Shown here one piece after another: positions 2,106-42,234 of a DNA stretch of 64,000 nt (positions are counted from its first letter, which is position 1; every line of letters starts with the position of its first letter). The DNA is taken from IMG/VR virus record IMGVR_UViG_3300045988_154277. One strand, written 5' to 3'. The position numbers and the translations under genes were made by a program. The DNA is from a virus. The notes below the pieces were generated by a model. It was not told the origin of the DNA. It did not search any database and saw nothing but the letters and a program-made list of their open reading frames with translations.

Positions 2106-3146
2106 TCATTTCTTCTCAGTATCAGGGGTTGGTTGTTCTTCAGGTTGAGCTTCCTGTTGTGGTTGTTCTTCCTGCGTAGCAACACTGTAGCCCTGTGCTT
2201 TCTTGGCGATCTCAGTAACCAACCTACGGAACCGTTGTTCCACAGATTTCAGGTACTTGATATCGTTGAAGATGATCCTGGTGTACACGAATACAGCTTG
2301 TGATTCAACGGTAGGTCCAGCATCATTACGGAACCTGTTGTTCGTAAGACCAGAGACCAGTTTACGAGTCTCCTTACTTACAGTTTTCAGGTTGGTAAGA
2401 ACACTGTTGCCTGCTTGCATACAAGATTTGATCTTGCTATCCACTTCTACGAACCTATCGTACGACGTGAATCCAAGCGTCTGTAGGGAAGACATCTTGC
2501 GTTGACGATCTTCGTAGGGTGTTTGATAGTTGGGACCAACCTTCATACCACCCGCTGGAACTTTTGAGTTGAACCTCTGCAGATATGTTGCACGTAAGCT
2601 ATCGATCGGAGCCGTTGGGAGAGACGGTTTCACCACATCATCGTACGTTACCTCGAAGTGTTTCTGCACGATCTCACACGTCTTGATAAAGCGAGAAGCA
2701 GAGGTCGAATGGAACTTCTCATTCTGCATCGACTCGACTTTGTCTTTGATGAACGCGAGTTGCTTCGTGTAGGAACGTTGACTACGAGAGAAGAACGCTT
2801 CTGCGAAATCCAACACCTTGGAGACGATCGTCTGCAGAGCGTGAATGAACGCAGTGATCCCTTTCTTCACAACACCACCGATTTCGCGAGCGGTTACTTC
2901 GATACCATACTGCGCAAGTGTATTACCGTAAAGAGACTCCACAGAACGAGTATACCCGTACTTCTGGATCACAGTATCGAGTATGGTGAGATGCTCGATC
3001 GAGTGCAAGATCTCTTCTGCTGTTCGGATCGCGTCTTCTGCTTCATTTATGGTGCTAACGAGCATACACTCAGCAGCGATCGCGTCCTCGATTGAGAAGA
3101 GATGGTCGTTCTTGGACGGAACGAGATTTTCAAATCCAAAACGCAT
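2106..3146 (-). CDS. helical protein, paralog family member A (346 aa)
   Basis: N-terminus MRFGFENL... and KYGYTRSVESLYGNT block are shared with the 246-aa and 323-aa neighbours. Confidence 0.6.
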   Translation of the reverse strand: MRFGFENLVPSKNDHLFSIEDAIAAECMLVSTINEAEDAIRTAEEILHSIEHLTILDTVIQKYGYTRSVESLYGNTLAQYGIEVTAREIGGVVKKGITAFIHALQTIVSKVLDFAEAFFSRSQRSYTKQLAFIKDKVESMQNEKFHSTSASRFIKTCEIVQKHFEVTYDDVVKPSLPTAPIDSLRATYLQRFNSKVPAGGMKVGPNYQTPYEDRQRKMSSLQTLGFTSYDRFVEVDSKIKSCMQAGNSVLTNLKTVSKETRKLVSGLTNNRFRNDAGPTVESQAVFVYTRIIFNDIKYLKSVEQRFRRLVTEIAKKAQGYSVATQEEQPQQEAQPEEQPTPDTEKK

Positions 3147-3228: not shown

Positions 3229-3969
3229 TTACTTAGCCGCGTTCTCTTCCGGAGCAGCTTGGTCAGCATTCTTGTCTTTCGACTTGTCGGCACCACCTGC
3301 ACGCTTCGCGGCAGCGATGAACGAGTTGGCAACTCGGATGACGTTTCTGTCGTCCTCGACCGCCTTCTTGATGGCATCACGCAGCTGTTGAATGTATTCA
3401 TCAGTAGCTGCATTCTGCGCTTCTTTGAGCTGATCTTCAAGTTGACTTTTTGTCTTCCCAAGTTCATTGACAGCCTGCTTCAGTTTATTGAGAGCAGCCG
3501 TGAACTTACCTTCATCGGTAATCTTACCATCGATCACAGATCCGCCTTTGATTTCGAACGGACCTTTGAACTTCAGCGAGTTCAGAGCAGAAGCAGTACG
3601 TTCTTTCTGGTTGAAGAGCCATTTGAAGAAATTCGTAACTTTCGCCCAAAGATCCTTCAGGATCTGCTTGATCTTCTGACCGAGACCCTTCTTGGCCTCT
3701 TCGTTCTCAGCTTCCATAGAAGCGGCGCTGCTGAAGTTCTCTCCATAGAGAGCTTCCAGAGAACGAGTCACGCCATATTTCTTGATGCACTTGCTGATGG
3801 CGTTGACGTTGTCATAAGTGCGAACCGTAGCGGTGAGTTCATGACACAGATCCAGGACATCGGAAGCAGCCTGATTGAACTGGATCAGAGAATCCAGGTA
3901 CTCATACGAAAGTTCACCAGAAGCTTTCGGAGCCATGCCCAGATTTTCAAAACCAAGATTGATACCCAT
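3229..3969 (-). CDS. helical protein, paralog family member B (246 aa)
   Basis: MGINLGFENLG... and KKYGVTRSLEALYGEN; paralog of the 2106-3146 product. Confidence 0.6.
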   Translation of the reverse strand: MGINLGFENLGMAPKASGELSYEYLDSLIQFNQAASDVLDLCHELTATVRTYDNVNAISKCIKKYGVTRSLEALYGENFSSAASMEAENEEAKKGLGQKIKQILKDLWAKVTNFFKWLFNQKERTASALNSLKFKGPFEIKGGSVIDGKITDEGKFTAALNKLKQAVNELGKTKSQLEDQLKEAQNAATDEYIQQLRDAIKKAVEDDRNVIRVANSFIAAAKRAGGADKSKDKNADQAAPEENAAK

Positions 3970-5063: not shown

Positions 5064-5453
5064 TCATCTGTTGAATATCCCAAATCTTCTCTTGATCTTC
5101 ACTTTCACCGTTACCTTGGATAACCCAACCAAGTACATTTTGAAGTAGGGTTCTCCGTAGTTGCAGCAATCTCTGTTATGTTTGTTGATCTCTTCTACTA
5201 CACCAAGTGCAGCTCCCATCTGTTTTAACAGACTGTAATTCACGACACGAAGAGATACGTTCAGACTGTACTCCAACACCTTGTCGTGATACATCTCCTC
5301 CACACATCGACGATATGCATCGTGAACGAGGTCGTAGATACATCTGGTGATCTCATCACTTGGGTTCTTCGCATTCTTGATGCGGATCGACATGTTCTTC
5401 AATTGTTCTTCTTGTTTCTGGTAAACAAGATCGTAAAGTTGTTTGGCATCCAT
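5064..5453 (-). CDS. hypothetical protein (129 aa; start moved to MDAKQ)
   Basis: ORF 5064-5561. The upstream part overlaps a promoter-like AT-rich element (5480-5510), and an AAAGGA RBS precedes the ATG at 5453. Confidence 0.4.
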   Translation of the reverse strand: MDAKQLYDLVYQKQEEQLKNMSIRIKNAKNPSDEITRCIYDLVHDAYRRCVEEMYHDKVLEYSLNVSLRVVNYSLLKQMGAALGVVEEINKHNRDCCNYGEPYFKMYLVGLSKVTVKVKIKRRFGIFNR

Positions 5454-5534
5454 TGTTTCTAATTCCTTTCTACGTATGCATGCTATGATCACTTGACATT
5501 CAATATATTTAACCAATCTAACATGAGGTGTAAG

Positions 5535-6573
5535 ATGGCTTTCAAAAGACGTAAGATCCAACTGGATCCAGAGATGAAACAGAGGATGGAAAGTAGCAGT
5601 AGGAACATTTTCGAAGTGTTCTACTCTGCGACGACTACCCCCCCCAGGTGCGTTCCCACTTTGGACAGGTGAGTGGATCCTGAACTGTGCGGGTACTTAC
5701 CCAACATTCTACCAGAAAGCAGTAGAATATCAATCCAAAGGTACGATCCGTGCTGTGAGCAATGCTGATTATGAATCAGACTTAACTATATATGGAGAGT
5801 GTGGCGCATTCGTAATCCAAGGGAATGACATCCGTTTACCTAAGATCACTTCGTATGTGAAATCATGCAATCTCAAAAGCGACATCGGTGTTACACTACC
5901 TCCTGGTCTTCCTAACATCACAGGTACATTCGGTGGTATTTCCAGAAGGACAGATGCCGGATGGATCCACCCGAGTGGAGCGTTGAGTTTGATCAGAGAA
6001 CCTTTTGGTTGGGGTCCCGCCGGTAGTGATCCAACTTACGCTGGAGAACTTCAGTTCAACGCTAACGCATCGAACAGCATCTATGGAGCATCGGGTACCG
6101 TACAGCCTCCTTCTGTTCAGTTAGCGGCTTACATCCAAGTGTATCACGGAGTATCGGACCAATCTCTCGTCAACATCGGTGAACTCACCAACCAGATCTC
6201 TCAGTTATCTGCGAAAGTAACAGAACTCACCAGACAGTTGGATACCTACAAATCGAACAACTTCGGTGCTCCTGATCATAGCAATCGTGTTGTGTTGACT
6301 CCTGAAACATCGGCAACAGAACTATCATACACTCCGAATGTGAATGGATATATCTCGGGATACTTCATGCGAAAGGACGACGGAGCAACCCAGATCGACC
6401 TGATTGTAAATGGAGTTACCTATAGCAACTGGTCGAGACCTGGTTCGTATTACGTGAATGGTCACATGTCCGTACTGATGCCTGTGAAAGCAGGACAGAC
6501 GGTCGTTGTAAGAAGAGTCAGTGGTAATTGGAACAACAGGCTCAACTGGTTGTACTTCATCCCGTGTGCTTAA
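5535..6573 (+). CDS. tail-fibre-like protein, reading frame broken by a C8 homopolymer (two ORFs as sequenced: 5535-5672 and 5755-6573)
   Basis: GAGGTG RBS plus ATG at 5535; frame 0 stops at 5670. The +1 frame from 5578 onward encodes PPGAFPLWTGEWILNCAGTYPTFYQKAVEYQSKG...YGECGAFVIQGNDIRLPKIT, paralogous to the middle of the 605-aa fibre, but has no start codon. Deleting one C (C8 to C7) fuses both parts. Confidence 0.6.
5638..5645 (+). repeat. C8 homopolymer tract inside the fibre gene
   Basis: ACTACCCCCCCCAGG seen directly. Confidence 0.9.
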
Positions 6574-6575
6574 TA

Positions 6576-6616
6576 GTTGATAGAGTGAGGAGTATGACAC
6601 TCCTCACTCTATCAAC
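6576..6616. terminator. 18-bp stem bidirectional hairpin between convergent genes
   Basis: GTTGATAGAGTGAGGAGT atgac ACTCCTCACTCTATCAAC. Confidence 0.55.
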
Positions 6617-6618
6617 AT

Positions 6619-7590
6619 TCACTTCTCTATGATCTTTAAAAGAACTTGGCATTTCTTACCAACAAGCGTAGAGTATTTCATCACACTACGTACATTGTTG
6701 TCGATCTGTTTGACAAGCGTCTTCACGGTGTCGAGTTTGGTCTTCGCCATCTCTTTCGACATCTGGGTGTTGGACTTTGTGTCGTTAGCGATTGCTTTCG
6801 CCGTCGTATGGAAGTTACGAATGGCTCCGATGTAAGTGTTCATCTCATCGAACCGTGTAGCCAAAGTATTCAAACTGGTAGCATCGAACCATTTACCGTT
6901 GACAGGGTCCATACCATCCTCAGTATTGCGGACATCTTTTCCGTTACCAGACTCCTTTTTGAGTTGGTCTTGGGTGGTGGTCAGGGCGTTATCTTCCGTT
7001 TTAGATTGTTCCTCCTGTCCCTGTGCTTGTACGGTCTCTTCGTTCGTCTTCAGTGCTTTAAGCTTATCGGCTCGATCTTGGAACTCTTTCTGATTGTCCA
7101 AGATCTCTTTCAGGAACTTCGCGATCGACTCAGTTGATTCACCGTGTGTGGTATACTCTTTCTTGAGTTTATCCACATTCTTCGGATCTTGACATTTGTT
7201 CGCCAACTTACGAAGGAGATCAGCAGAGGCCTTCGTGCTGACAGACATCACCTCTGTGAGGTATCGAATCAACTTCGGGAAGAACTCAGTTACTTTATCC
7301 CACATCGTAGTCATCGTCTTGGAGATCCCTCCTGCAACTTCAACGCTAGAAGTATAACCTTCTTGTGCAAGTTGTAAGCCGACGATATCTTGAAACACAT
7401 GATCTGTACGCAATGTATCAATGTGATGTTCTAACCACATCAGATTACGACACAACACATCCAGATCCTCCAAGGACTGGAACAGTTCTCTCGATGTGTC
7501 ATTGTGCTGATCTTCTTTCAAGGTCAAAAGGATCCGTTCATCCATAGACAAGGATGGGTCCTTATAAAGCGGTGTAAAATTAAATGACAT
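6619..7590 (-). CDS. helical protein, paralog family member C (323 aa; start at MSFNFTPLY)
   Basis: ORF track starts at 7824, but that region contains the 7619-7651 hairpin. The ATG at 7590 has a GGAGAC RBS. The product resembles the 346- and 246-aa proteins. Confidence 0.55.
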   Translation of the reverse strand: MSFNFTPLYKDPSLSMDERILLTLKEDQHNDTSRELFQSLEDLDVLCRNLMWLEHHIDTLRTDHVFQDIVGLQLAQEGYTSSVEVAGGISKTMTTMWDKVTEFFPKLIRYLTEVMSVSTKASADLLRKLANKCQDPKNVDKLKKEYTTHGESTESIAKFLKEILDNQKEFQDRADKLKALKTNEETVQAQGQEEQSKTEDNALTTTQDQLKKESGNGKDVRNTEDGMDPVNGKWFDATSLNTLATRFDEMNTYIGAIRNFHTTAKAIANDTKSNTQMSKEMAKTKLDTVKTLVKQIDNNVRSVMKYSTLVGKKCQVLLKIIEK

Positions 7591-9927: not shown

Positions 9928-12900
9928 TTACGCTGGTACAGGTTTGGCAACATTGATTGCAGGTTCTCGTCTTGGTTTGGGACGGGACGCTGCTACCGCG
10001 TTCTGAGCGGTCTCTTTGGCATACGCCATCGCAGCAGTTAATGCTTTCTGAGCCCCTTCAGACGTTGCCTTCTCCTGAGCCACTTTGCTGTCAGATGTGA
10101 CGATGATCTGTTCCTTCATCAGGTTGACCATCTCAGCGAGTTTATCGACGATACTGCTGTTACCGGAAGTTGTCGCTTGGACGAGTGCTTCCGTTCCAGC
10201 AGCCTGTTGACTAGCAGCATCACCAGCCTTAGAAGGCTGTTTGCTCTCCAGATAAGCATTGACACCATCGTGTTTCGCCATCTGTTTGTCGCTGATGCTG
10301 GATGCTGTATTGACAGGTGATTTCGGTTTAGTGCCGGTGATCTTGTCCCAGAAGGTTTGCTTCTTCGGAGCGAACCGATCAAGAGCATCGTAGACGTCTT
10401 TCGCAGAACGTTTCGATTGACCTAACTCCGTATATTCACCAGGACCTTTCAAGTTACGACCGATGTTGTGGAGATCACTCATCGCCTCAACGACATTCTC
10501 TTTGTCGTTATCAACGAAATCTTCGGTGAGTGTAACTTTACCATCAGGTCCGACCACCTCTTTGGTAGAGGCTCTGCGTTCGAGTGCACCATGAAGACCT
10601 TCAACCGTACCTGTTGTTTTCTTGCGACGGTTGACGATCGATGCGTTCAACGATTGGCTGATGTCACTGGTACTTACTTCTCCATTGTCGTCTGTAGTAA
10701 GGGTGTCTTTTGCACCCAACAACATACCGCTGGTGTCGATCTGTTTACCAGTCATCCGATCCCAGAGACCGAGATGATGTTTCATACGAGTATGCTGATA
10801 CTCACGTCTCAGCTTGTCGTACTCTTCAGGACCAACCATCTTCACCGCTTCTTCAGCGGACATGCTCATGATCTTTTCGACATAAGCAGCTCGTTCTTCC
10901 TGACCACCTTTCAGTTTGTCAGCAAGAGCACGAGAGCCTGTTGCTGCGATATCTTTCAGATCGGTGATGAACCCTTCACCACTAGCATTCGTAGCAACAT
11001 CTTCAAGGTACCCAGCAGCTTTCCCAGCTAAGCCTGCGGCTTTACCGCGTGCCCACTTAAGTCCTGCTTTAGCACCTGTAACCATTTTGCCACGAAGTTT
11101 CGCTTTCAGCTCATCAACTTTATCATTGGCAGCTAGGATACCTTTACCTATGGTTTTAGCACCACCTAGTAGTGCGTTACCAACGGCTTTGTTACCTGCT
11201 ATATACTTAGAACCGAGCCATTTGGCTCCTTTCCAAGCATTCTTAAGGTTACCAAGTGCTTTCGCACCTGCCCACTTAAGTCCTTTAGCAGCTTTACCTG
11301 TTAGGTCGAACTTATCGTTGAGAGCTTTCGCACCCATAGCGGCTAACCCAACTGGTGAAGTGAACGTTGCTGCTTTCAGAAGCTTACTACCCCATCCAGG
11401 TTTCTTTATGGTTGCTCCTTCCAACGCCTTACTTACGATGTCTGATTTGGTGGCGGTGCTGGCACCTTTGTCTGTAGCACCCTCTTTAGTCTTACCTTCT
11501 TCTGCAGGTTTTGCTTCATCGGACGACTCGGTGGTCTTCTCAGATGATCCACCTTTGTTGCCCCACATCGATGTGACAGTTGCTTCGATGAGTGCTCGAC
11601 GACTGGATGCCGACGCATCGGGATAGTGTTCATCGACATAATCCCGAAGTTCTGATTTGAACTCAGCCACGGAGTCGGAAGTGTCCATCAGAGCTTGTGC
11701 GACGTTCTGAGGGATACTCAGTTTACCGCTATCTTTTTCCTCAGTCTTTTCTGCACCTTCCTTCTTCTCGTCTTTCTTACCGAAGCCGAGCTTCTTGGCT
11801 AACCAACCGCCAGCCTTAGCAGCGCCTGTTGCAGCAAGACCGACTGGTGTTGCATATTTCAGGAGGTTTTTAGTTCCTTTCCAGAACCCACCTTTGGCTG
11901 CCTCCAGCTTCTTCTTGGCTCCTTCATCACCTAGTGATGCTTTGTATTCCAAATCAGCACGTTCATCAGCATCGAGGTCTGTAGAAAACCCGGCCTTCCT
12001 GGACAACCAGTTGACACCACGAGTCGCTTTGTCTCGATCCAAAAGACCAAAAGTTAAACCAGAAGCGACACCTCCAAGTGCACCAGAAGCTTTCTCAGCG
12101 AAGTTCAGTTTATCCTGATCTACACCAAGAGCTGCCCCTGCATTACCCCAGCCTTTATATCCGTCGTAGAGACCTTTCGCTGCTGTGACGGCGAGACCGA
12201 CAGGTCCTGCAAACTTGGCAAGTCCTCCAGCGAGAGAACCCAATCCTCCAAGTTTACCAGCGATACCAGCAGCAGCTCCGCCGAGCTTCCCGAGACCACC
12301 GGACAGCAGTCCGCCTGCTTTCGTAGCGATGCCTCCTCCAGCACCTCCAAGAAGACCACCAACTTTGCTAAGTCCACCAGAGATCAACCCACCTGCTTTG
12401 CTGGCGATCGATCCACCGGCTTTACTCAGTACGGAACCAACGCGTCCTGTGATCCCACCCATATCTCCTTTTTGGAGAAGAGTACCGATGCCTTTACGCA
12501 TCAGTTTACCGACACCAGAATGGAGGAACTTACGACCGAGTTTGGTCTTGCGAAGGAGCTTCATACCTCCAGCAGCGAGTTTGTTACGTGCGAATTTGAG
12601 TGCTTTGCTCTTTACAGCATCCATCGCATCGTCCATCAACCCACCACCTTCTTCATCTCCTTGACCTTCACCAGATCCTTGTCCTTGGACTGTGCCTTCT
12701 CCACCTTGTGCAGCGGCTTTCGCTGCTGCATCTTCTGCCATCTTTTTCTTGCGTTCTTCAAGACGTTTTTCGTTGGCAGCTTGCTGTTCTTCAGCGGACA
12801 TGTTGGCTTCGGCTTGTTCGGCGTCTTTCTTGGCTTCTTCTTCTTTCTGATCCTTCTCGACACGACGATCTCGTTCTTCCTTCAGAAGATCGTAGATCTC

Positions 12901-15900
12901 GGTGATCTTGTTCAGAAGAAGATCGATACCAAGTTTACGTCCAGCTTTCGGTACTTCGGAGTCACCTTCTTTCTCTTTACTGAAGAATTTAGCGATCCCA
13001 GAACCTACCTTTTTAGCACCATCCCAAGCGGTACGGAAGAGACCACCCCATCCTTTGCGATTCCAGATGTTATCGTCTTCTTCCCCTTCTTTCTTCTTGG
13101 AAGGTCCACTTGATTTGGAGAACCAACCACTCACTTTGTCTTTGATACGACTGACCAGGGAGGGTTTCGCACCAGCTTGTGCTGTTTTATACTGTTCAGG
13201 TACTTGATCAGCACTGACGAATCTACCATCTGGACCATGCCATCTTCCGTTGGCATCCTGATAGTACTGTTTATCCTCTGGAACAGGTTCTTCCAGTGGT
13301 TTTGCATCTTTCTTACGGAATGGGTGTGTGATTCCTTTCCAGGCTTTGCTGCCCAACCACTTGCCACCTCTCCAAGCGCCACCAACGGTCTTCTTCGTGG
13401 TCCACCAAGACGCTTTACCAAGCCACTTGGCTGGAGTGAGCAACGCCTTGCCAACAGCAGGTGCTGCTTTCAGAGCACCTCCGATGACACGACCACCTCC
13501 ACTCAGAACACCTTTGGCGATGTTACCGTACATCCCCATCATCGCCGCCATCATGCGACCATAAGCTCCGATCAAACCACCGCCGATCTTACCACCTGCA
13601 CCGATGATAGAACCAAGGATTCCTTTGCCTTTGCCACCTCCTGGGATACCCATGATAGCAGAAAGCAAAGATTGGTTATCAGCGATCTGTCGTTGAGCAA
13701 ACAGTCTGAAGTCACTGTGGAATACAGACTCAGCCTCTCCTTCGAACTTCAGATCACCCTCTGGAGCTTTGGATTCTTCTTTCTTGGTAGCCTGTACCGT
13801 AGTAGCAGGAGTTGCATCGACTGCAGCTTCTTTCACTTCCGGTTTGTTGCGATGAAAGAGTCCCTTCATCTTACCGAAGAACCCAACCTTGTTGACATTC
13901 TTGATATCAGACTGAGGTTGATCTCTATGGAAGAAAGATCCGATCTTCTTGAAGAACCCTGGTTGTTTGGCTGCAACAGGTTCCGATTGACCGACTTCTT
14001 CGTCAGCATGTTGGAGAGTTGCATCCGGGATGGCATCTTTCGCGATGTCCTGAGGAGTGAACTCACCCTCATCTCCAGATCCTTCCAGCTGAGTAGCATT
14101 CAGCATCTTCGGATCGATCTTCTGTTCTCCGGGTTTCGCGTTCTTGTTGTACTTCTCGATCACCTTCTTGGCTGCTTCTGTACCTTTCTTGACGTCACCT
14201 TTGGCTTTCTCAAAAGCTTCCTTGACGTCTTTCTTGACACTGTCCGGGATGTGAGCCATGATCCAGCGACCGATCTTCGAACGACGAAACTTCAACCACC
14301 CATAACGAAGCTTCCTCCAGAGACCACGGATACCGGATGTCGCTTTGCTTTTGATCGCTCCACCAACACCTTTTTCCTGGATCTCTTTCTGGATATCCTC
14401 AAGCCCACTTACCATCTTCTTACGGATGTTGTCGAGGGCTTCTTTCCGTTTCTTGCTATCGGTGATCATACTCTTGTAAGAGGACAACTGACTCAGTACT
14501 TCACCGAGATACTTTTTGCGCTGATCAGCGCTTGGTATCACGGTGGAAATTCTCTTCAGATCATCCAATATCTTCTTCTGTGCACCGGTGGCTTTTAGAT
14601 CTGTTCCAAGCTTATTGAGGAACTTCCCGATGCTGTGCCCAGACTTGACTGCGTTGTCATAAAGAACACCGACTTGTTCCTGCATGGATTCTGGGAAATA
14701 CTTCACCAGTTCTTCTCTGCTTTGGAATGTCTCCACTAACTTACCGGTGACATCTTGGACTTTCTGTTTCGCACCTTTGACAGCATCTGTTGTTGTCTTA
14801 GGTGATTCCTTAGCACGCTCTTCCATGAGAGCACTGAATCCCATAGGACGATGTTCTTCTGGCGCAGTACCTTGTACGTTGGAAGTAACATTACCGACCT
14901 GCATCTCAGTGGTGGATGTTGCCCCACCAGCGGAATTCACAGCATCAAAGCCGATCCTACGAGAACCCTCTTGGGTATAAGTGGGTTTGGTTCTCCACTC
15001 AACACCATCCGTTGGATTGTATCCATCTGGCGGGATAGGACCATTAGAAGGTCTTCCACCACCGAGTAACTCGATGATACGATCCAGTTTATCTGGGATC
15101 CAACGACGAAGCGATGTTCTGCTGTCCGCATCGAATGCAACAGCTTCTTCAGCGACATCCGCAGCAGTACGGACTTTCACCTGTTTGGTAGAACGACGTT
15201 TGCCTTTGGAGGAACCACTAACCGTGTAGTTACCGGATGCACCTGGTGTAACAGTATACGCAGGTTCCGGCTTAACCTCTTCGTAGTGTTCCGGTATGTC
15301 ATTCTCTTCAGTGATTTCACTGTAACGGAAGCTGGGATCACTCATGTCGAATACCCAGCGTTTCTTCGTACAGAGCTTATTGATCTCTTCTACAGGGAGG
15401 GTCCCTGGTTGAAGAGGTGTGGACACGTTGATCGTCTCACTGTACCGATTGAGTCTTAAGTCAGAGGCAGAGATTACGTAGGTCGTAGGACCTGTTTTCA
15501 CGACAGAGTTTACGTGAGGCTTCTTCTGCTCACTCTCATCGTACTTGCTTTTCGCTTTGCTGTAAGTACGACCGATCACGGTGTCATCAGAGAAGAAATC
15601 AGTAACACCCTGTTTGGTTTTCTCATACTTCCCTTTCAGCCAACCAGCTGCTTTCGTGAGATCGTTGTTGATGAAATCAGGTGTCGCATATGCTGCTCCA
15701 CCGAGCACACCAGAGAGCTTATCAGCGAAGTCACCCTCTTTACCACCACGGTGCTTCCACCGCTGACGGAGCTTCTCCTCTTCTGCTTTCAGATGACGCA
15801 ATTCATCCATCTCATATGACGCAGTACGTTCTGCATCATCTTGGGTTTCCAAGTCAAGACGCAAGTCCTTCAATTCCTTCTGACTGTACGGTTGTCCAGT

Positions 15901-17940
15901 CTTAGGATTATAGAAGGTGGTTTTCTTCTTCTTGAGTTTGGGATCCAACATGTTGAGAAGACCAGCGTTCTTGACACCCTCTTTGTGAGTGGCGATATCG
16001 GAGAACAATTGAGACTGACCGAATCCTTCCGAAGCTCTCGCCATCATCTCCTGAATGTTGGTATCGTTCATACGATCTGAGATAGCAGCGTTGATACGAT
16101 CTACCATCATCCCACTTGGACGATTGGTCTTCGGATCTTTGGTCATATCCATTAACAACTGCACAAAAGCTTTTCTGGTAGCATGATCCTCAGGTATCCC
16201 GTCGAATACAAGCTTGATGTAAGACGAGGTGATGTCAGTTCTGTTCTCTGCACCAGGACTAGATAACGCTTGGTAATATTCGAGAAGTGTTTCATAATCG
16301 AAGAACCGAGCAGCCGTTGCAGAGTTGATCAAGAACCGTTTCAAGTGATCTTCCATCTTGGACATCTGCTCTTGAAGCTTCTCCGCTTTTGCAGTACCCT
16401 TCTTAGCGTTCTTGTTCGTTAAAAGGATCGCACGGAACTTACCCATCGTCTCACCCATACGGCGAGCACGATCTTCTTTGCTACCGAACTCTTTGGAGAT
16501 GAAGTCTTCTCTAGCTTCTTCAACGGTTGTGAGTTTCCTCTGATGAACGTTGAAGGTCATCTGGTTGATCTTAGCATTCGGAGCTAAGGTTTGCTGTAAC
16601 GCTTCTACCAGATTACCGATCCTCTCCAGGTGACGTGGCATTACTTCAACGATCGTCTGTCTCGTTGTATTGTCGAACGGAACCGCTTCGTTCGCTCCTT
16701 CCAACATACTGTTACGAACAGCTTGTTTGTTGAAGCTCGGGATCTTATCAGCGATCCACCCGAGGAGGGTACCGTATTCACCACGATGTCTCTCCGCGAA
16801 CTGCTGAAGCCATGAGATCCCTTTGTTCTTCATGAACATGCCTTTATTCTCGATCAGATCACGAAGTCCACCATACTGTTTCAGCTTATCTCCGAAAAGT
16901 TTCTTTGCTCCGAGTTGAGCACCAAGTCCGAGACCCATAGCAACAAGTTTCATGGGAGTGAGTTTCTCCCCACCCCCCATCATCTCCATCATGGAAGTCA
17001 TCATGTCCAACTGAGGGATGATCCCCCTGGTGACATTCTTTACACTTCCCATCAAACTCTTGGAGATGTTCTGCATCATGGTGCTGCGGAACGAAGACTG
17101 ATACTCCGAATAGGTCTGGAGACGAGATCCTCTGGAAGCAGCAAGTCCCCCAACTCTCAGATTACCAGCTTTCATGTAATCAGGAACGCTGGTATTCTTA
17201 CTGATCTCTTTCAGACGCTCTTCTGAGATCTTAGCGATCGCAACCGTCGCCTTATGGATGTCTTTCATCACGAAGAGTCCCTGATACTTCAGTTCAAGGC
17301 TCTTCTTCAAATAACCAGTATAAGTACCCGTCAAGAACTCAGCAACTGTACTGACACTGTCACCGATCTTGTTGAGTGCTTCATAAGAAGCTTTAAAATG
17401 TTCCTCATTCAGTTTACGGTCGACCATGCGTTCCGTATCCTGTTTGATGATCATCTGCTTCTGTACTTCAGCCTGTCCTTCGAAGATAGACTGTAACGAA
17501 GAGCGTATGGTTTCATTGCGGATCTCCGCTTCCATATCTCTCTTCTTCTCCGCAGGGATGATGCTCTCTTCCAGCTTCTTCTTGATGCTATCATACCACT
17601 TCTTGGGCATGATCTTCTCCACCATGGGCATGGAACGAAGTGTAATCTGTTTCATGCTGTTGACAGCTGGAGAGATCTCGCTGGCAAGGTCCTGTTGGAG
17701 CTTCTTGAAATCATCCACAGTAGCAATGGTCTCATCGACAAGTTGGCTGGTGTTTCCGAACCGATCTTTCAGTTCGTTGTGCAACCCTTTCAATGCACCT
17801 TTGCCTGTGCTCTTCAGAAGCTCAGAGACATTCTTCAATGTCTCAGAACCTTTCTTCTTATTGGAGCTGTCATCACCCATGTCGATATCAAACTCATCGA
17901 ACATGTCTGCGGATAGATTGTCGAATTGGTCAGCGCCCAT
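9928..17940 (-). CDS. giant virion-associated protein (2670 aa), Gly/Ala/Lys-rich repeats, tape-measure-like or ejection-protein-like
   Basis: 8-kb uninterrupted ORF; repeated blocks of the type KAGGLLSGGLGKLGGAAAGIAGKLGG and AKKLGFGKK. Plus-strand ORFs inside it are shadows. Confidence 0.75.
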   Translation of the reverse strand: MGADQFDNLSADMFDEFDIDMGDDSSNKKKGSETLKNVSELLKSTGKGALKGLHNELKDRFGNTSQLVDETIATVDDFKKLQQDLASEISPAVNSMKQITLRSMPMVEKIMPKKWYDSIKKKLEESIIPAEKKRDMEAEIRNETIRSSLQSIFEGQAEVQKQMIIKQDTERMVDRKLNEEHFKASYEALNKIGDSVSTVAEFLTGTYTGYLKKSLELKYQGLFVMKDIHKATVAIAKISEERLKEISKNTSVPDYMKAGNLRVGGLAASRGSRLQTYSEYQSSFRSTMMQNISKSLMGSVKNVTRGIIPQLDMMTSMMEMMGGGEKLTPMKLVAMGLGLGAQLGAKKLFGDKLKQYGGLRDLIENKGMFMKNKGISWLQQFAERHRGEYGTLLGWIADKIPSFNKQAVRNSMLEGANEAVPFDNTTRQTIVEVMPRHLERIGNLVEALQQTLAPNAKINQMTFNVHQRKLTTVEEAREDFISKEFGSKEDRARRMGETMGKFRAILLTNKNAKKGTAKAEKLQEQMSKMEDHLKRFLINSATAARFFDYETLLEYYQALSSPGAENRTDITSSYIKLVFDGIPEDHATRKAFVQLLMDMTKDPKTNRPSGMMVDRINAAISDRMNDTNIQEMMARASEGFGQSQLFSDIATHKEGVKNAGLLNMLDPKLKKKKTTFYNPKTGQPYSQKELKDLRLDLETQDDAERTASYEMDELRHLKAEEEKLRQRWKHRGGKEGDFADKLSGVLGGAAYATPDFINNDLTKAAGWLKGKYEKTKQGVTDFFSDDTVIGRTYSKAKSKYDESEQKKPHVNSVVKTGPTTYVISASDLRLNRYSETINVSTPLQPGTLPVEEINKLCTKKRWVFDMSDPSFRYSEITEENDIPEHYEEVKPEPAYTVTPGASGNYTVSGSSKGKRRSTKQVKVRTAADVAEEAVAFDADSRTSLRRWIPDKLDRIIELLGGGRPSNGPIPPDGYNPTDGVEWRTKPTYTQEGSRRIGFDAVNSAGGATSTTEMQVGNVTSNVQGTAPEEHRPMGFSALMEERAKESPKTTTDAVKGAKQKVQDVTGKLVETFQSREELVKYFPESMQEQVGVLYDNAVKSGHSIGKFLNKLGTDLKATGAQKKILDDLKRISTVIPSADQRKKYLGEVLSQLSSYKSMITDSKKRKEALDNIRKKMVSGLEDIQKEIQEKGVGGAIKSKATSGIRGLWRKLRYGWLKFRRSKIGRWIMAHIPDSVKKDVKEAFEKAKGDVKKGTEAAKKVIEKYNKNAKPGEQKIDPKMLNATQLEGSGDEGEFTPQDIAKDAIPDATLQHADEEVGQSEPVAAKQPGFFKKIGSFFHRDQPQSDIKNVNKVGFFGKMKGLFHRNKPEVKEAAVDATPATTVQATKKEESKAPEGDLKFEGEAESVFHSDFRLFAQRQIADNQSLLSAIMGIPGGGKGKGILGSIIGAGGKIGGGLIGAYGRMMAAMMGMYGNIAKGVLSGGGRVIGGALKAAPAVGKALLTPAKWLGKASWWTTKKTVGGAWRGGKWLGSKAWKGITHPFRKKDAKPLEEPVPEDKQYYQDANGRWHGPDGRFVSADQVPEQYKTAQAGAKPSLVSRIKDKVSGWFSKSSGPSKKKEGEEDDNIWNRKGWGGLFRTAWDGAKKVGSGIAKFFSKEKEGDSEVPKAGRKLGIDLLLNKITEIYDLLKEERDRRVEKDQKEEEAKKDAEQAEANMSAEEQQAANEKRLEERKKKMAEDAAAKAAAQGGEGTVQGQGSGEGQGDEEGGGLMDDAMDAVKSKALKFARNKLAAGGMKLLRKTKLGRKFLHSGVGKLMRKGIGTLLQKGDMGGITGRVGSVLSKAGGSIASKAGGLISGGLSKVGGLLGGAGGGIATKAGGLLSGGLGKLGGAAAGIAGKLGGLGSLAGGLAKFAGPVGLAVTAAKGLYDGYKGWGNAGAALGVDQDKLNFAEKASGALGGVASGLTFGLLDRDKATRGVNWLSRKAGFSTDLDADERADLEYKASLGDEGAKKKLEAAKGGFWKGTKNLLKYATPVGLAATGAAKAGGWLAKKLGFGKKDEKKEGAEKTEEKDSGKLSIPQNVAQALMDTSDSVAEFKSELRDYVDEHYPDASASSRRALIEATVTSMWGNKGGSSEKTTESSDEAKPAEEGKTKEGATDKGASTATKSDIVSKALEGATIKKPGWGSKLLKAATFTSPVGLAAMGAKALNDKFDLTGKAAKGLKWAGAKALGNLKNAWKGAKWLGSKYIAGNKAVGNALLGGAKTIGKGILAANDKVDELKAKLRGKMVTGAKAGLKWARGKAAGLAGKAAGYLEDVATNASGEGFITDLKDIAATGSRALADKLKGGQEERAAYVEKIMSMSAEEAVKMVGPEEYDKLRREYQHTRMKHHLGLWDRMTGKQIDTSGMLLGAKDTLTTDDNGEVSTSDISQSLNASIVNRRKKTTGTVEGLHGALERRASTKEVVGPDGKVTLTEDFVDNDKENVVEAMSDLHNIGRNLKGPGEYTELGQSKRSAKDVYDALDRFAPKKQTFWDKITGTKPKSPVNTASSISDKQMAKHDGVNAYLESKQPSKAGDAASQQAAGTEALVQATTSGNSSIVDKLAEMVNLMKEQIIVTSDSKVAQEKATSEGAQKALTAAMAYAKETAQNAVAASRPKPRREPAINVAKPVPA

Positions 17941-36148: not shown

Positions 36149-36157
36149 GGGGGGGGG
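36149..36157. repeat. G9 homopolymer tract in the divergent promoter region of the fibre operon
   Basis: GCATGGGGGGGGGTAAGCC between the gene starts at 36108 (minus) and 36288 (plus). Confidence 0.9.
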
Positions 36158-37551: not shown

Positions 37552-39369
37552 ATGCCTAATGATTTTATCACAACAAGAACCCCAGGTTCCCGTACTTCAA
37601 CGTACGGACTGGCGGATCACATAGCGGATACAAATGCTAATCCGCATCCTCAGTATCTGCTGAAGGACGATTACATCACTGGTGGTGCTGTAACTGACGG
37701 TAAATTGGAAGCACATATCAAAGATCTCAATGCACACGCTGGCGTACTCGCTTCGATCCAAATGCTGAACAACTATGTGTTGATATCGAAGTTCACTGAG
37801 CTCTTGAGTGCGAATCTGTATCATGATTATGCAAACGACAGTAGCGAAGCACATGCTGCATCTATGTCTGCTGTGAATGGCGCATATGGTGCAGCGCTGA
37901 CTGCGCTGAGCCAACATACGGTTCAGTATGCACAAAATGCCGCAGTAACAGGGCATCGTGATTCTGAGAACCAAGAGCTGTATGCACATCGAGTGCATAC
38001 ACATACATTGGAAGAACTGGGTGGAGCTACCAGTTTGCTCCCAGATCTGGATAAGAGGTATTCTCAACTTGGTCATAACCACGATGACCGATATGCTCTT
38101 ATCACACACTACCACAACTACCTTGCGCAGTCTGATCTTGAATCAGTCGGTATCTATCCGAACACGACGATCGGTATCGCTGGTACTGATACAGAGACTG
38201 GTGCTGTTACCGATCCGTTTGATTTCAATGACGAGACGCAACAGGGGAATGTTTCGATATCTCCTACTGTGATGTCTTCTGCGTTGAACAAACCAGACAT
38301 CACAACTCCGAGTGCCGCTTCGTTTTTGAATATCACCACAGAGATAACCTCTGCTGACAAAGAAGACGATAGTGATACTACCATCTACGGAGAACGGTAT
38401 GTGTCTCAGTCTTTGACCACCGATAATGGCATCTACTACCGTATCGGTCATCGTGCTGCTGGTTCATTGGCTGAAGGTCAGGATGAGTCTGCTCTCTGGA
38501 CTTGGAGTGATTGGCAACCTGTTGGTGGAGGTTCGAAGGATATCTTCGAGGTGTTTTACTCGACATCAACGGCTACACCAAGAGGCGCATTTCCACTGTG
38601 GACTGGTGAGATGATCACGAACTGTAAAACGCTATATCCGACGTTCTACCAGAAAGCGCTGGAATATCAAACCAGCGGTAAGATCCGAGTGGTTACCCCC
38701 ACTGTTTACGAACAAGAGCTGACTACGTACGGTGAGTGTGGTGCATTCGTGATCGACACAGCGACTGGTAACATTCGTCTTCCGAAGATCACAAGATTTA
38801 TCAGTTCTTTGGATGCGGTTGGTGATATCGGCGTCGCGAAGAACGATATGCTTGTTGACCACACTCACACAAATGATTACACAAATGTCAGTGGCAACGC
38901 ATCCCCGACTGCTGATGGAGTTCATGGTAGTGCCATGCCTGCAGAACGCGCAACTAGAAACACTACAGTGTCTGCAAGTAATTCTAAAACCACAGTTGGT
39001 AATGAAGTCCAACCCAAACACGTTCGTTTGGCGCTGTACATCCAGGTGTACAACTCGATTACGGCATCTGCGATCACTGATCTGGATGCTCGTGTTGGTG
39101 TGCTGGAACAAAATGCGATCATGTTCGCAAGACATGATTTCACAGCATCCCAGTGGAACGATAACAGTGATGGTACCTTCACTTATACGTTCAATACGAA
39201 CCACTTCACTTCATCTCACATTTACATGAATGAGACAGGAGGGTCGGTCCTTGTTGATGAATCCGTAGAAGTGCATATTGAGGGTCCAACTGAAACTGAC
39301 GCATCTTCGCGTAAAGTCAGATTGGTCTCCCCACAGCGGTTCTCCGGATACATCATCACATTGGGGTAA
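37552..39369 (+). CDS. tail fibre protein with His-box repeats (605 aa)
   Basis: NANPHPQY, LNAHAG, HRVHTHTLEE, LGHNHDDRYALITHYHNY motifs. Its internal module GAFPLWTGEMITNCKTLYPTFYQKALEYQTSGKIRVV...YGECGAFVID...IRLPKIT is shared with the 5535-6573 gene. Confidence 0.6.
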   Translation: MPNDFITTRTPGSRTSTYGLADHIADTNANPHPQYLLKDDYITGGAVTDGKLEAHIKDLNAHAGVLASIQMLNNYVLISKFTELLSANLYHDYANDSSEAHAASMSAVNGAYGAALTALSQHTVQYAQNAAVTGHRDSENQELYAHRVHTHTLEELGGATSLLPDLDKRYSQLGHNHDDRYALITHYHNYLAQSDLESVGIYPNTTIGIAGTDTETGAVTDPFDFNDETQQGNVSISPTVMSSALNKPDITTPSAASFLNITTEITSADKEDDSDTTIYGERYVSQSLTTDNGIYYRIGHRAAGSLAEGQDESALWTWSDWQPVGGGSKDIFEVFYSTSTATPRGAFPLWTGEMITNCKTLYPTFYQKALEYQTSGKIRVVTPTVYEQELTTYGECGAFVIDTATGNIRLPKITRFISSLDAVGDIGVAKNDMLVDHTHTNDYTNVSGNASPTADGVHGSAMPAERATRNTTVSASNSKTTVGNEVQPKHVRLALYIQVYNSITASAITDLDARVGVLEQNAIMFARHDFTASQWNDNSDGTFTYTFNTNHFTSSHIYMNETGGSVLVDESVEVHIEGPTETDASSRKVRLVSPQRFSGYIITLG

Positions 39370-39372
39370 TTA

Positions 39373-39379
39373 CCCCCCC
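39373..39379. repeat. C7 homopolymer tract between the fibre gene and the LRR gene
   Basis: GGGGTAATTACCCCCCCTCAG. Lies inside the 123-nt start-codon-free open leader of the LRR frame. Confidence 0.9.
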
Positions 39380-39437
39380 TCAGTTTAAATATACGCTTAT
39401 TGACTGGGGCGGGGTAACCGCTGCTCGCATCACAGGG

Positions 39438-41069
39438 TTGGAGTCGAATGAGTCCAACATATCAGCGTTGTACGTCCCATCCTTCATCACAGATGAGGAT
39501 GGGGTACAGTATCCTGTGAAATCTGTTGGTTTGAAAGCGTTCGCGGGTAATCCGAACCTTGTCAAAATCTATTTTGGAGAAGGTATCGAAGAGCTTCGTG
39601 AACAAGTATGTTACCACTGCTCTAACTTGGAGTCGGTATCACTTCCGTCTACACTACGTTATATGTGGAATGCGTTTCAAGAGTGTGGGAAGATAACTAC
39701 GTTGGAGTTACCAGCTAATCTGGAATACCTCGGATCAAGTTGGATATATTCGATGGTAGGACTTACTGGGGTGATCAACATCCCAGCTAAGGTAACTGAG
39801 ATCAATATAACAGCCATCTCGTCAGAGCATATAACCGGGTTTAATGTAGCAGCTGCTAATCCCAACTACAAATCCGTCGATGGGTGCTTGTTCACCAAAG
39901 ATGGAACAACGTTGTGTTTAGTACCGTCATCCGCTGATTGGGTGACTGAATATGTTACACCAGATGGTGTAACAACGATTTGGACAAGTGCATTTTCTAC
40001 CAACCGCAGTCTTGTCACATTGACACTTAGCGAAGGGGTTGTATCTGCACCAAGCGCAATCGGTAGCTGCACAAAGTTGATACAGTTGAATCTACCGTCT
40101 ACTCTAACAACCAACCCATTCCAATCCCTCGCCAATATGTACAGCTTATCTGCGATTACCGTATCGGAGAATAGTCAGACATTTGCGGCGGTGGATGGAG
40201 TGATGTTCACCAAAGATCTGAATACATTGATCAAGTATCCTCCTAAGAAAGAAGCAGCATATATCGTACCTTCTACTACCAAAATACTTGGTAGTGGTGC
40301 GTTCTCTTTAGGTAGGATGCAGTCTCTCACCTTGAATGAAGGATTACTTGCTATTTATTCAGATGCATTACGGTCTGTGATCAAAGTTCCAAGTGATAGT
40401 ACACTGAATGTGTTGCGTATTCCGAACACGGTCAACTCTATCGCCAACAACGGATTGTTTGAAGCGTTCTGGTCTGGCTTTGAAGTAGACAACACACATC
40501 CTTATTATTCCACGGATGGTTCTGTTCTTTATAACAAAAATAAGACTGCAGCTCTTGTGTATACCTGTGATACCTCCGCTCCTCACGATCGAGAAGTAAC
40601 ACTTCCATCTACCGTTGAGGAGATCGGTTTAGGTTTCTCACATAACAACAGTCCACTTGTGAAGTTAGATCTGAGTCGAACCAAAGTAACGGTTCTTCCG
40701 CAGTTCACTTGGTTCTCAACAGCGAACGACGGTAATGAACGAACTCTTTTGCTTCCAAACACGTTAACAAGGATCAATTATAACAGCATCCGAATCGTAA
40801 GTGCAAGAACTCTCACGATACCGGCTGGTGTAACTACCATTGAATCTGCTGCGATAGGGTTGGATAATGCAGAGGAGATCGTGTTCGAAGATCCAGGGCA
40901 AGCTGGATCTGATGGAGTTAAGGTGTTCAACCTGACAACCTTCAACAGCATCTTCTGGACTATATCTCCAAGGTGTGTTGTTCGTGGGTATAAAGGATCT
41001 GAAGACAACTTGTCTCCAGCTGAACAAATCGCCAAGCAGTATACATTGCTGTTTGAACCACTCGGTTAA
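39438..41069 (+). CDS. BspA-type leucine-rich-repeat surface-protein-like domain protein (543 aa), probable fibre/adhesin component
   Basis: Repeats of the form xxSVxxIGxxAFxxCxxLxxIxLPxxL throughout. No ATG: the track uses TTG at 39438, and the frame is open upstream back to 39315. Confidence 0.5.
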   Translation: MESNESNISALYVPSFITDEDGVQYPVKSVGLKAFAGNPNLVKIYFGEGIEELREQVCYHCSNLESVSLPSTLRYMWNAFQECGKITTLELPANLEYLGSSWIYSMVGLTGVINIPAKVTEINITAISSEHITGFNVAAANPNYKSVDGCLFTKDGTTLCLVPSSADWVTEYVTPDGVTTIWTSAFSTNRSLVTLTLSEGVVSAPSAIGSCTKLIQLNLPSTLTTNPFQSLANMYSLSAITVSENSQTFAAVDGVMFTKDLNTLIKYPPKKEAAYIVPSTTKILGSGAFSLGRMQSLTLNEGLLAIYSDALRSVIKVPSDSTLNVLRIPNTVNSIANNGLFEAFWSGFEVDNTHPYYSTDGSVLYNKNKTAALVYTCDTSAPHDREVTLPSTVEEIGLGFSHNNSPLVKLDLSRTKVTVLPQFTWFSTANDGNERTLLLPNTLTRINYNSIRIVSARTLTIPAGVTTIESAAIGLDNAEEIVFEDPGQAGSDGVKVFNLTTFNSIFWTISPRCVVRGYKGSEDNLSPAEQIAKQYTLLFEPLG

Positions 41070-41134: not shown

Positions 41135-41482
41135 ATGTCTTACATCAAACATATGGGTAAGTTGGAACACGGAGGTGCTATCGGTGTCCCTGATTACCAA
41201 CAAGGGATCGTTATCCCTTGGGTAGATGGGTCCGGTTCTATGCAAGAGATAGGTGGTTCCAGTCGTAATATCCAGAAACAATACACGATACCTCAAGATG
41301 GATGGGTGATCGGACGACTTGGTGCAACTCACTACTCAGTCAACGGGATTTGGGTGAACCAAGGACAGGACAGCTACAACGGAGAAGGTTGTATCCCTGT
41401 GAAACAAGGCGACATCCTTGGTTGTGCAGCCAACTCACCATCAGATCATGTTTATTTCTACCCAGCTGTGGGGGGGGGGTAA
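41135..41482 (+). CDS. small fibre-locus paralog 1 (115 aa) ending in a G10 tract
   Basis: MSYIKHMGKLEHGG... ends PAVGGG-stop, with GGGGGGGGGG at 41470-41479 directly before the TAA. Confidence 0.55.
   Translation: MSYIKHMGKLEHGGAIGVPDYQQGIVIPWVDGSGSMQEIGGSSRNIQKQYTIPQDGWVIGRLGATHYSVNGIWVNQGQDSYNGEGCIPVKQGDILGCAANSPSDHVYFYPAVGGG
41470..41479 (+). repeat. G10 homopolymer tract at the 3' end of paralog 1
   Basis: Seen directly. Confidence 0.9.
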
Positions 41483-41512
41483 TTACCTTCTTGATGAGAG
41501 GAGGGCTGCCTA

Positions 41513-41902
41513 ATGTATACCAAATATATGGGAGCTCTCACTCCGAGTGTATGCGGTGCGCCTGATTACTCCAAGGCTGAGAACAGACCTTACACTACCA
41601 ACTCCAACGGCACTCGCGCATTCCATTACACAGAGTCACAATCGGGTTGGTTGTTCATCCAGTATGTGGCTGATGCGTTCGAAAGTAACCGTGCGAATCG
41701 ATTGATGATTGATGGAACTGCATTTGTGTTCAACGATACTAATGGAGCGAAGCATTACATCGATTATGTGTCGTATCAAGTTCCGATCGGTGCAGGAAGT
41801 ACTTGGGATTTCTCCTTCCAAGGGCAACGTGCTACAGTCACGTTCGTTCCATCGGGGGGGGGGTCGTTAGCTAACGACCTGATCTACGAGGAGGTGGCGT
41901 GA
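41513..41902 (+). CDS. small fibre-locus paralog 2 (129 aa) with a G10 tract 13 codons before its stop
   Basis: MYTKYMGALTPSV...VPSGGGSLANDLIYEEVA; GAGAGGAGGG RBS; G10 at 41854-41863. Confidence 0.55.
   Translation: MYTKYMGALTPSVCGAPDYSKAENRPYTTNSNGTRAFHYTESQSGWLFIQYVADAFESNRANRLMIDGTAFVFNDTNGAKHYIDYVSYQVPIGAGSTWDFSFQGQRATVTFVPSGGGSLANDLIYEEVA
41854..41863 (+). repeat. G10 homopolymer tract near the 3' end of paralog 2
   Basis: Seen directly. Confidence 0.9.
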
Positions 41903-42234
41903 TGGCTTACGTAAAACACATGGGGATCTTATCCCACGTTTATGCCGATATGGAGATCGACTACGCCAATGCTGTCACGCTTACCAGTAGCGAAACATAC
42001 ATCGCACCCAATGCAGGTGTATACTACGCGAAAGGTCACTCCACGAACAGTGGATCAGCGTCGATCATCGTCAGGGCTGTGAAAGGTGATGTACCGGCTA
42101 TCACCAACCAAGCTATCGTAACAGAAGGTAGCTACGACTTACACGCTAGTGTGGTGGTCGGCAAAGGTGACAGTTGTTCGATGATCGCAACCAGATGCAA
42201 CAATCTCGTGATACGGTTCTATCCATTCAAGTAA
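41902..42234 (+). CDS. small fibre-locus paralog 3 (110 aa)
   Basis: MAYVKHMGILSHV...; start overlaps the stop of paralog 2. Confidence 0.5.
   Translation: MAYVKHMGILSHVYADMEIDYANAVTLTSSETYIAPNAGVYYAKGHSTNSGSASIIVRAVKGDVPAITNQAIVTEGSYDLHASVVVGKGDSCSMIATRCNNLVIRFYPFK

Follow-up and report, generated by a model that had tools for sequence, protein, structure and literature searches.

We analysed a 64,000-nucleotide (nt) stretch of viral DNA (IMG/VR record IMGVR_UViG_3300045988_154277; hereafter, the window) and, within it, a tail-fibre-like gene whose reading frame is interrupted near its 5' end by a run of eight cytosines (C8; Table 1). A GAGGTG ribosome-binding site (5525-5530) and an ATG at 5535 open a frame that runs into the tract and stops early, its product being the peptide MAFKRRKIQLDPEMKQRMESSSRNIFEVFYSATTTPPRCVPTLDR of 45 amino acids (aa). 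The run is exactly C8 and covers codons 35-38 of a gene encoding about 346 aa. The +1 frame is open from before the tract through to the terminal TAA and reads PPGAFPLWTGEWILNCAGTYPTFYQKAVEYQSKG...; past its upstream stop, the first ATG, GTG or TTG is the GTG at 5755, and the downstream part therefore lacks a start codon of its own near the tract. The interrupted frame and the startless continuation had both been described by a model that saw the letters alone (the sequence-only reading), which also held that the loss of one C would restore one protein. Removing one C (C7) does give a continuous protein, although of 345 aa and not the 346 aa announced, and this repaired protein served as the query for the homology searches. 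The peptide that spans the tract in the repaired frame is NIFEVFYSATTTPP(P)GAFPLWTGEW..., with the junction peptide NIFEVFYSATTTPPPGAFPLWTGEWILNCAGTYPTFYQK and a version of it with PP.

The run of eight is not a chance feature. On both strands, CCCCCCCC has nine overlapping matches in the window, at four sites that represent all its C or G runs of at least 8 nt, against 0.32 matches expected from dinucleotide shuffles, none of which gave more than two. Only five homopolymers of at least 7 nt were found in the window; all consist of G or C, and no A or T run is longer than 6 nt.

Table 1. Features of the fibre locus and of the other G/C tracts (positions in the window), followed by the length of the fibre gene tract in the window and in related contigs (L numbers)
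Feature	Position or contig	Strand	Basis or remark
Intergenic leader containing GAGGTG, between a divergent 129-aa minus-strand gene and the fibre gene	5454..5534	+	Sequence; gene calls of relatives
N-terminal coding segment, 34 codons plus 1 nt, MAFKRRKIQLDPEMKQRMESSSRNIFEVFYSATT...	5535..5637	+	Translation; protein conserved in relatives; in frame with the remainder in ON alleles
C8 homopolymer tract, probable switch, out of frame here	5638..5645	+	Sequence; C7, C8, C9 and C10 in relatives
Remainder of the fibre gene, +1 frame, ending with TAA 6571-6573	5646..6573	+	Translation, homology, model
Premature TGA of the ATG frame at C8 (45-aa peptide)	5670..5672	+	Translation
Perfect 18-bp inverted repeat with 5-nt loop, between the fibre gene and the convergent minus-strand gene ending at 6619	6576..6616		Sequence
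G9, in the 179-nt spacer between a divergent 155-aa gene (minus, ATG 36108) and a 412-aa gene (plus, ATG 36288)	36149..36157		
605-aa paralogous long fibre-like gene; T-P-R-G in mixed codons (ACA CCA AGA) at the tract site, no homopolymer	37552..39369	+	BLASTP
C7, within the palindrome GGGGTAATTACCCC(CCC) at 39366-39383, three bases past the stop of the 605-aa gene	39373..39379		C8 in L023, L025
G10, 3' end of the small gene 41135-41482 (...YFYPAVGGG, then stop)	41470..41479	+	
G10, near the 3' end of the small gene 41513-41902	41854..41863	+	TGA overlaps the ATG of gene 41902-42234 (TGATG)
Fibre gene tract C10, in frame	L001, L002, L019, L039, L046		Contig DNA
Fibre gene tract C9	L003, L005, L006, L008		Contig DNA
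Fibre gene tract C8	Window, L004, L038, L047, L048		Contig DNA
Fibre gene tract C7	L007, L020		Contig DNA

The protein encoded by the two frames is tail-fibre-like and probably receptor-binding, a working label that we draw from four weak signals. One is paralogy: BLASTP aligned residues 22-288 of the repaired protein with residues 328-569 of the product of the 605-aa open reading frame (ORF), at 39% identity (E = 2e-44). The relationship with this long fibre, as given by the sequence-only reading, thus stands, although its extent is longer than the residues of about 320-400 that had been named. The other signals are a weak match to PHROG 6921, "tail fiber protein" (E = 3.3e-4), a weak profile match to the L-shaped tail fibre of T5 (E = 0.048), and a Foldseek search of BFVD, whose top matches were tail fibres and a tail-collar protein (E = 3e-7 to 2e-4, template modelling (TM) scores of at most 0.2). 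The latter search started from an AlphaFold2 model that was built on a 13-sequence alignment and is poor, with a predicted local distance difference test (pLDDT) score of 55.6; the same model predicts a long helix at residues 209-242, and sub-threshold matches to trimeric coiled coils (LPP) were obtained. In a Pfam search with the fibre and its homologues no family was found, the sole signal again being the sub-threshold LPP coiled coil. For the C-terminal beta-sandwich head, Foldseek against the PDB gave weak jelly-roll/cupin, C1q/TNF and carbohydrate-binding module (CBM) matches, on which we do not rely. Past the tract come a collar-like region (GAFPLWTGEW...IRLPKIT) and a middle region, then a coiled-coil neck at about aa 209-242 of the model, and finally the C-terminal head. 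The tract sits at the junction of the 34-residue N-terminal segment with the collar-like region, which is common to the short and the long fibres.

By its sequence, the source of the window is an uncultured phiKZ-like jumbo phage of the human gut, with a genome of roughly 278 kb. The relatives of the window are contigs of 260-280 kb from human gut metagenomes. The phage encodes the beta subunit of a multisubunit RNA polymerase, which shares about 25% identity with its counterparts in phiKZ-like jumbo phages, and in a near-identical contig the 745-aa gene at 48150-50387 is assigned to the PhiKZ_MCP family. In a set of 50,697 deposited phage genomes, megablast of positions 5300-6700 found no match and tblastn with the repaired protein found a single weak one, in Dulem virus 31 (28.7% identity, E = 2e-4); the 567-aa neighbouring gene had no tblastn match among the deposited phages.

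A search of a large protein collection with the repaired protein returned a homologue of 346 aa (P0001), 97% identical over its full length, and many others that were seemingly cut at the N-terminus. We compared the tract across about 20 related contigs, which stem from independent gut metagenomes and are all consensus sequences of assemblies, and found four different lengths (Table 1). Among the source runs, SRR28437047 and ERR2619711 carry C10, SRR30861124 and SRR14556529 carry C8 and ERR14039211 carries C9; further assemblies behind the contigs are ERZ28568400, ERZ24910471, ERZ27275931 and ERZ28655913. The C8 state of the window recurs in L048 (ERZ28568400; 100% identity with the window over 2 kb), in L047 (SRR30861124) and in L038 (SRR14556529). 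In the lineages in which AGG follows the run, only C10 is in frame (ON): it encodes Pro-Pro-Pro (...TTTPPPGAFPLWTGEW..., TTTPPPGAF) in a protein of 346 aa, and C8 and C9 are out of frame (OFF), with a stop after 45-50 codons. The sequence-only reading had placed the ON state at one C fewer than in the window; in the relatives it is two C's longer and never C7, and no full-length version with two prolines (C7) was seen in the AGG-flanked lineages. Most of the full-length proteins that we examined have PPP at the site and two have PPT or PPL, the PPT protein (L044, L045) being encoded by a broken tract, ACT CCC CCC ACA, that retains only C6. In a sublineage with GGAGCG after the run, short N-terminal ORFs in the databases add out-of-frame states at C7, C9 and C10. 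Only three N-terminal OFF peptides have been called as genes, too few for a distribution of C8 versus C9. The Logan and ENA assemblies each contain both ON and OFF states, and many variants are reported by both sources.

The change between states appears to be recurrent. Three clusters of proteins at 90% identity, around P0001, P0003 and P0004, each mix full-length and truncated members, and together with related clusters they contain 47 distinct protein variants, 16 of them ON and 31 OFF. On a neighbour-joining tree of the shared C-terminal 245 residues, ON and OFF are interleaved across three sublineages. Fitch parsimony needs at least 13 changes, counted without regard to direction, a pattern that would fit reversible, recurrent switching. 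In five ON/OFF pairs, drawn from two sublineages, the OFF protein is identical throughout to the tail of the ON protein. The 272-aa OFF product of the window itself corresponds to P0129 (ERZ28568400 scaffold_10) and over 271 residues matches the tail of P0126, an ON protein, without a difference. At the DNA level, the C10 allele of L039 and the C8 allele of the window differ by one synonymous substitution in the 1,031 nt of the gene and by the two C's, in a setting of flanking genes that are 2.5-9% different. The tract therefore changes on a time scale over which the rest of the gene does not. The comparison also bears on how the gene travels: the fibre allele of the window is one or two substitutions in 1,031 nt away from those of L039 and L047 while the flanking genes differ by 2-9%, and a near-identical allele amid diverged flanks implies recent recombinational spread of the gene cassette between lineages.

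Purifying selection acts on each half of the gene. The ratio of nonsynonymous to synonymous divergence (dN/dS) is about 0.03-0.2 in the N-terminal 34 codons, with dN 0.012 versus dS 0.43 in one comparison, and 0.14-0.37 in the downstream 308 codons, between alleles that are mostly OFF and with OFF-OFF comparisons included. Since the two frames are both conserved as protein, the only sensible reading is that they are regularly joined. The homopolymer has been maintained as well: dS between the lineage of the window and that of L004/L008 exceeds 2, i.e. it is saturated, and the pure C run is kept in both. CCC is the rarest proline codon in the genes of the window (12.6%), and the probability that Thr-Pro-Pro is encoded as ACC CCC CCC is about 0.005. 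The paralogous long fibres have ACA CCA AGA or similar at the homologous site, and a distant orthologue, 38% identical, uses CCA CCA CCT for Pro-Pro-Pro. On these three grounds, namely the mixed codons elsewhere, the rarity of CCC and the saturated dS, the homopolymer is derived within the clade and has been kept against codon preference.

We consider it likely, from these comparisons, that the run is a genuine hypermutable ON/OFF tract acting at the DNA level, in other words a slipped-strand contingency locus, in an accessory fibre-like gene. Slipped-strand mispairing during replication of the phage DNA would add or remove C's. At C10 the gene would be read through and the whole fibre made; at C9, or at C8 as in the window, translation would yield no more than 45-50 residues, without the collar, shaft or head domain. 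With a tract mutating far faster than the remainder of the gene, a population would keep yielding both fibre-plus and fibre-minus genomes, and the outcome would be a bet-hedging switch of an alternative receptor-binding protein. Such a switch was one of three explanations offered by the sequence-only reading, and it is supported at the genotype level, by lengths of C7 to C10 among near-identical genomes, by the occurrence of the same allele in both states, by the interleaving of ON and OFF and by the purifying selection on each half of the gene.

Several observations weigh against this interpretation. As the contigs are consensus assemblies, mixed tract lengths within a population, which are the hallmark of phase variation, are something that we infer. 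The fibre or receptor-binding function is read from weak similarity, with no Pfam match, a low pLDDT and low TM scores. The share of ON variants, about one third, is the one expected from random tract lengths and gives no hint that selection favours one of the states. Recombination and near-zero branch lengths could have raised the parsimony count. The C8 state is common to contigs of at least three samples whose flanks diverge by 2-4%, so that the instability of the tract stops short of a different length in each sample; the C8 allele could also be spreading by recombination. Finally, C7 occurs together with a nonsense change, TGG to TGA, in L007/L009 (one IMG/VR contig) and in L020, and the eight substitutions relative to the 99%-identical L005 comprise six nonsynonymous, one nonsense and one synonymous. 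In this lineage the gene is therefore decaying and dispensable, and OFF can become permanent. A second, hidden tract had been considered as the source of the short ORF of the L007 lineage and was rejected, the cause being the TGG-to-TGA point mutation.

Three other explanations have to be set against a DNA-level switch. The out-of-frame genotype might still be expressed, through stuttering of the RNA polymerase or slippage of the ribosome, so that the tract would tune the amount of fibre instead of turning it fully OFF. For C8 one might speculate that a +1 shift occurs at CCC-AGG, the peptidyl-tRNA-Pro re-pairing on CCA during the wait for a rare AGG codon; for C9 the route may be a -1 shift on C-CCC-CCC. 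Such leakage would account for OFF alleles being common (31 of 47) and yet constrained by purifying selection upstream and downstream of the tract, but frequent reversion to ON explains that selection equally well. The AGG that directly follows the run at C8 is the rarest arginine codon in the genes of the window (8.4%), and CCC-AGG resembles the CUU-AGG-C site of +1 frameshifting in Ty1. Long homopolymers are known to cause transcriptional slippage, and the phage has its own multisubunit RNA polymerase. However, transcriptional slippage works best on A/T runs of at least 9 nt, G/C runs slipping less because their RNA:DNA hybrid is more stable. Moreover, the relatives occupy all three frame relations and are often in frame, without any conserved frameshift configuration, and one C7 lineage has decayed, as expected if OFF is truly off. 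We regard leaky rescue as unlikely. A fixed, programmed ribosomal frameshift, which the sequence-only reading had listed, along with transcriptional slippage, as its second possibility, was ruled out as a design, given that the homologues occupy all three registers, one in frame and two out of frame, and that intact alleles are common. That the DNA state is not conserved likewise argues against a dedicated site of transcriptional slippage, although not against leaky slippage.

The decaying L007 lineage, with its additional nonsense mutation and nonsynonymous excess, is the kind of observation expected if the accessory fibre had been inactivated by a frameshift and were now decaying, the tract having no switching role. 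The gene is evidently dispensable, since most assemblies are OFF, and the paralogous long fibre is intact. We find a dead gene quite improbable all the same, because the tract is the only lesion of the window allele, whose protein is identical to that of an ON allele, because dN/dS between OFF alleles is well below 1, because the pure run has persisted over saturated synonymous divergence, and because the tree needs so many changes of state. As for the third possibility of the sequence-only reading, a single homopolymer error in sequencing or assembly that hides an intact gene, it is very unlikely. Homopolymers of 8-10 nt are indeed error-prone on several platforms, the coverage of some contigs is modest (about 10-18x, from the contig names), and another G run holds the only indel that separates the window from a contig with 99.975% identity. 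Against this, the identical C8 state comes from at least three independent samples, OFF and ON each occur in Logan as in ENA assemblies, and four lengths are seen instead of a scatter of one base around a single true value. Furthermore, the per-read indel error of Illumina sequencing is far too low to have altered the consensus in most of about 47 variants, an argument that also appears in PMC12633550.

The slipped-strand switch that we favour for the fibre gene has precedents in several known systems, with differences in each case. Slipped-strand phase variation through polyG and polyC tracts is a well-known property of surface genes in the bacteria Campylobacter, Neisseria and Haemophilus. 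There, too, the tract is of at least 8 nt and lies early in the ORF, the change of frame is truncating, the homopolymer is conserved against codon bias, and "locked" ON-type alleles exist in which point mutations have broken the run, as in L044 and L045. In contrast to the bacterial loci, the tract described here belongs to a virus genome replicated by the phage's own polymerase, and with many genomes per infected cell the genotype of a particle and its fibres can be uncoupled. The tail assembly chaperone G/GT, made by -1 frameshifting, resembles our locus in having a change of frame at a slippery run in a gene of the tail module; G/GT, however, has a slippery heptamer and an out-of-frame arrangement that do not change and are conserved, whereas here the frame relation varies between genomes and intact alleles are common.

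Among phages, the locus appears from its sequence to work like those of the Campylobacter and T-even phages without being homologous to them, and the principle is already known. In Campylobacter phages, hypermutable polyG tracts make the expression of receptor-binding proteins phase-variable (Sorensen et al. 2021, Cell Rep 35:109214, as related in PMC10579305 and PMC10877375). The common points are a G/C homopolymer in a host-recognition gene, ON and OFF set by its length, several tracts per genome and a proposed role in virion diversity. The likeness is one of mechanism only, since ours is an unrelated phiKZ-like gut jumbo phage without sequence homology. In addition, the evidence here is comparative, coming from metagenome assemblies of an uncultured phage, and the window has two intergenic tracts besides two at the 3' ends of small genes for head domains. 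In T2 and T4, reversible homopolymer contingency loci have been shown experimentally, together with a survey of other phages (Gomez, Barrick and Waters 2025, bioRxiv, PMC12633550). In the available part of that preprint, the runs are adenine runs in the agt gene, the survey takes in any run of at least 6 nt in all gene classes, and mutant frequencies are of the order of 1e-4 to 1e-3 per population. Homopolymers in phage genes that mutate by plus or minus one, at high and reversible rates, with mixed progeny as bet-hedging, are thus a shared theme; our tracts differ in being long (7-10 nt), made of G or C, few and clustered at fibre-type genes, and in that each of the alternative states is the consensus in different natural samples. 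The invertible G/C segments of Mu and P1 and the diversity-generating retroelements of Bordetella phage BPP-1 (PMC10579305) are other tropism switches that, like the present one, represent dedicated, high-rate genetic variation of the receptor-binding apparatus within a phage population. Unlike them, the fibre locus would vary the presence of a protein and not its sequence, and no invertase, inverted-repeat cassette or reverse transcriptase was seen there. In our literature search, we came across no account of a gut jumbo phage with switches of this type.

Experimental demonstrations of phase-variable receptor-binding proteins are limited to very few phages, namely the Campylobacter phages and, for contingency loci more generally, the T-even phages. 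The public metagenomes already hold both states of the same allele, in an abundant uncultured lineage of gut jumbo phages. This has consequences for annotation, as "frameshifted" fibre genes of metagenomic phages should be neither corrected automatically nor dismissed as pseudogenes, and for the prediction of host range from assembled gut phage genomes, which may err by a whole receptor-binding protein. If tract lengths were counted in SRA runs that are already public, the bet-hedging of phages could be measured in vivo with no need for culture, and long G/C runs clustered at fibre-type genes provide a simple sequence signature with which to find more switches.

The C8 tract seems to belong to a system of several tracts on host-recognition genes, of which the other four tracts were analysed less deeply. 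These four lie within a block at 36-42 kb that contains the 412-aa gene, the 605-aa paralogue, a leucine-rich-repeat protein of the BspA type and three small genes, and all four differ in length between relatives. The G9 tract between the divergent genes is G7 in one IMG/VR relative (L040) and G9 in L037, L041 and L042; its length could change the spacing of a promoter or leader. The adjacent 155-aa gene, which ends in ...LFYFIPA, was tried as a paralogue of the fibre head and rejected (BLASTP E = 0.27). The motif GGGTAATTACC of the palindrome downstream of the 605-aa gene recurs after the G10 run at 41470.

That run belongs to a set of three tandem small genes (41135-42234; 115, 129 and 110 aa), the first two of which end in G10 runs. 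At the first run, a contig that is 99.975% identical over 11.8 kb has G9, the only indel of the alignment, and with G9 a tail of 10 aa is added whose TAA overlaps the ATG of the next gene (TAATG). At the second, relatives with G9 reach an early stop, at 118 aa; homology (E = 1e-14) connects this gene with the head domain at the C-terminus of a fibre homologue. Between the long fibre gene and the small genes, 39438-41069 encodes the BspA-type protein (543 aa, LRR_5 with E = 1e-31; 519-533 aa in relatives), which may be another host-recognition component and a hint to the host. L004 has an extra C10 run at 284-293 (on the gene strand, a G10 with TAA after it), located between the homologues of window genes 2106-3146 and 3229-3969; the window has no run at this site, and the set of tracts therefore differs between lineages.

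One might tentatively speculate, although we think it somewhat doubtful, that at least five G/C-tract switches form a coordinated set on the host-recognition module of this clade, giving a combinatorial repertoire of virion tips with different states in different people. The C8 tract would then be the ON/OFF switch early in an ORF. In the two stand-alone genes for fibre-head domains, one G more or less in the 3'-end tracts would swap the C-terminal tail and make or break the stop-start overlap. Of the remaining two tracts, one would act between divergent genes, adjoining a long fibre-like gene, and the other in the palindrome past the long fibre gene.

At the borders of the fibre gene, the 129-aa minus-strand gene lies immediately upstream according to the gene calls of the relatives, and no sigma-70-type promoter was found on the plus strand of the locus in the promoter and terminator scan, which is uninformative for promoters because phiKZ-like phages encode their own RNA polymerase. 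The inverted repeat on the downstream side is probably a bidirectional terminator hairpin, missed by the terminator scan because it has no T-run. In L001 (4176-5429) and L002 (3355-4608), a 417-aa gene of the IS605 family, OrfB/TnpB, with the domains HTH_OrfB_IS605, OrfB_IS605 and Cas12f1-like_TNB, directly follows the fibre gene; the window is without it, and the equivalent place is between 6573 and 6619. A tRNA scan of the window found none. Further along, a 2,670-aa ORF on the minus strand (9928-17940) adjoins a 752-aa gene that matches a PHROG with the annotation "virion structural protein".

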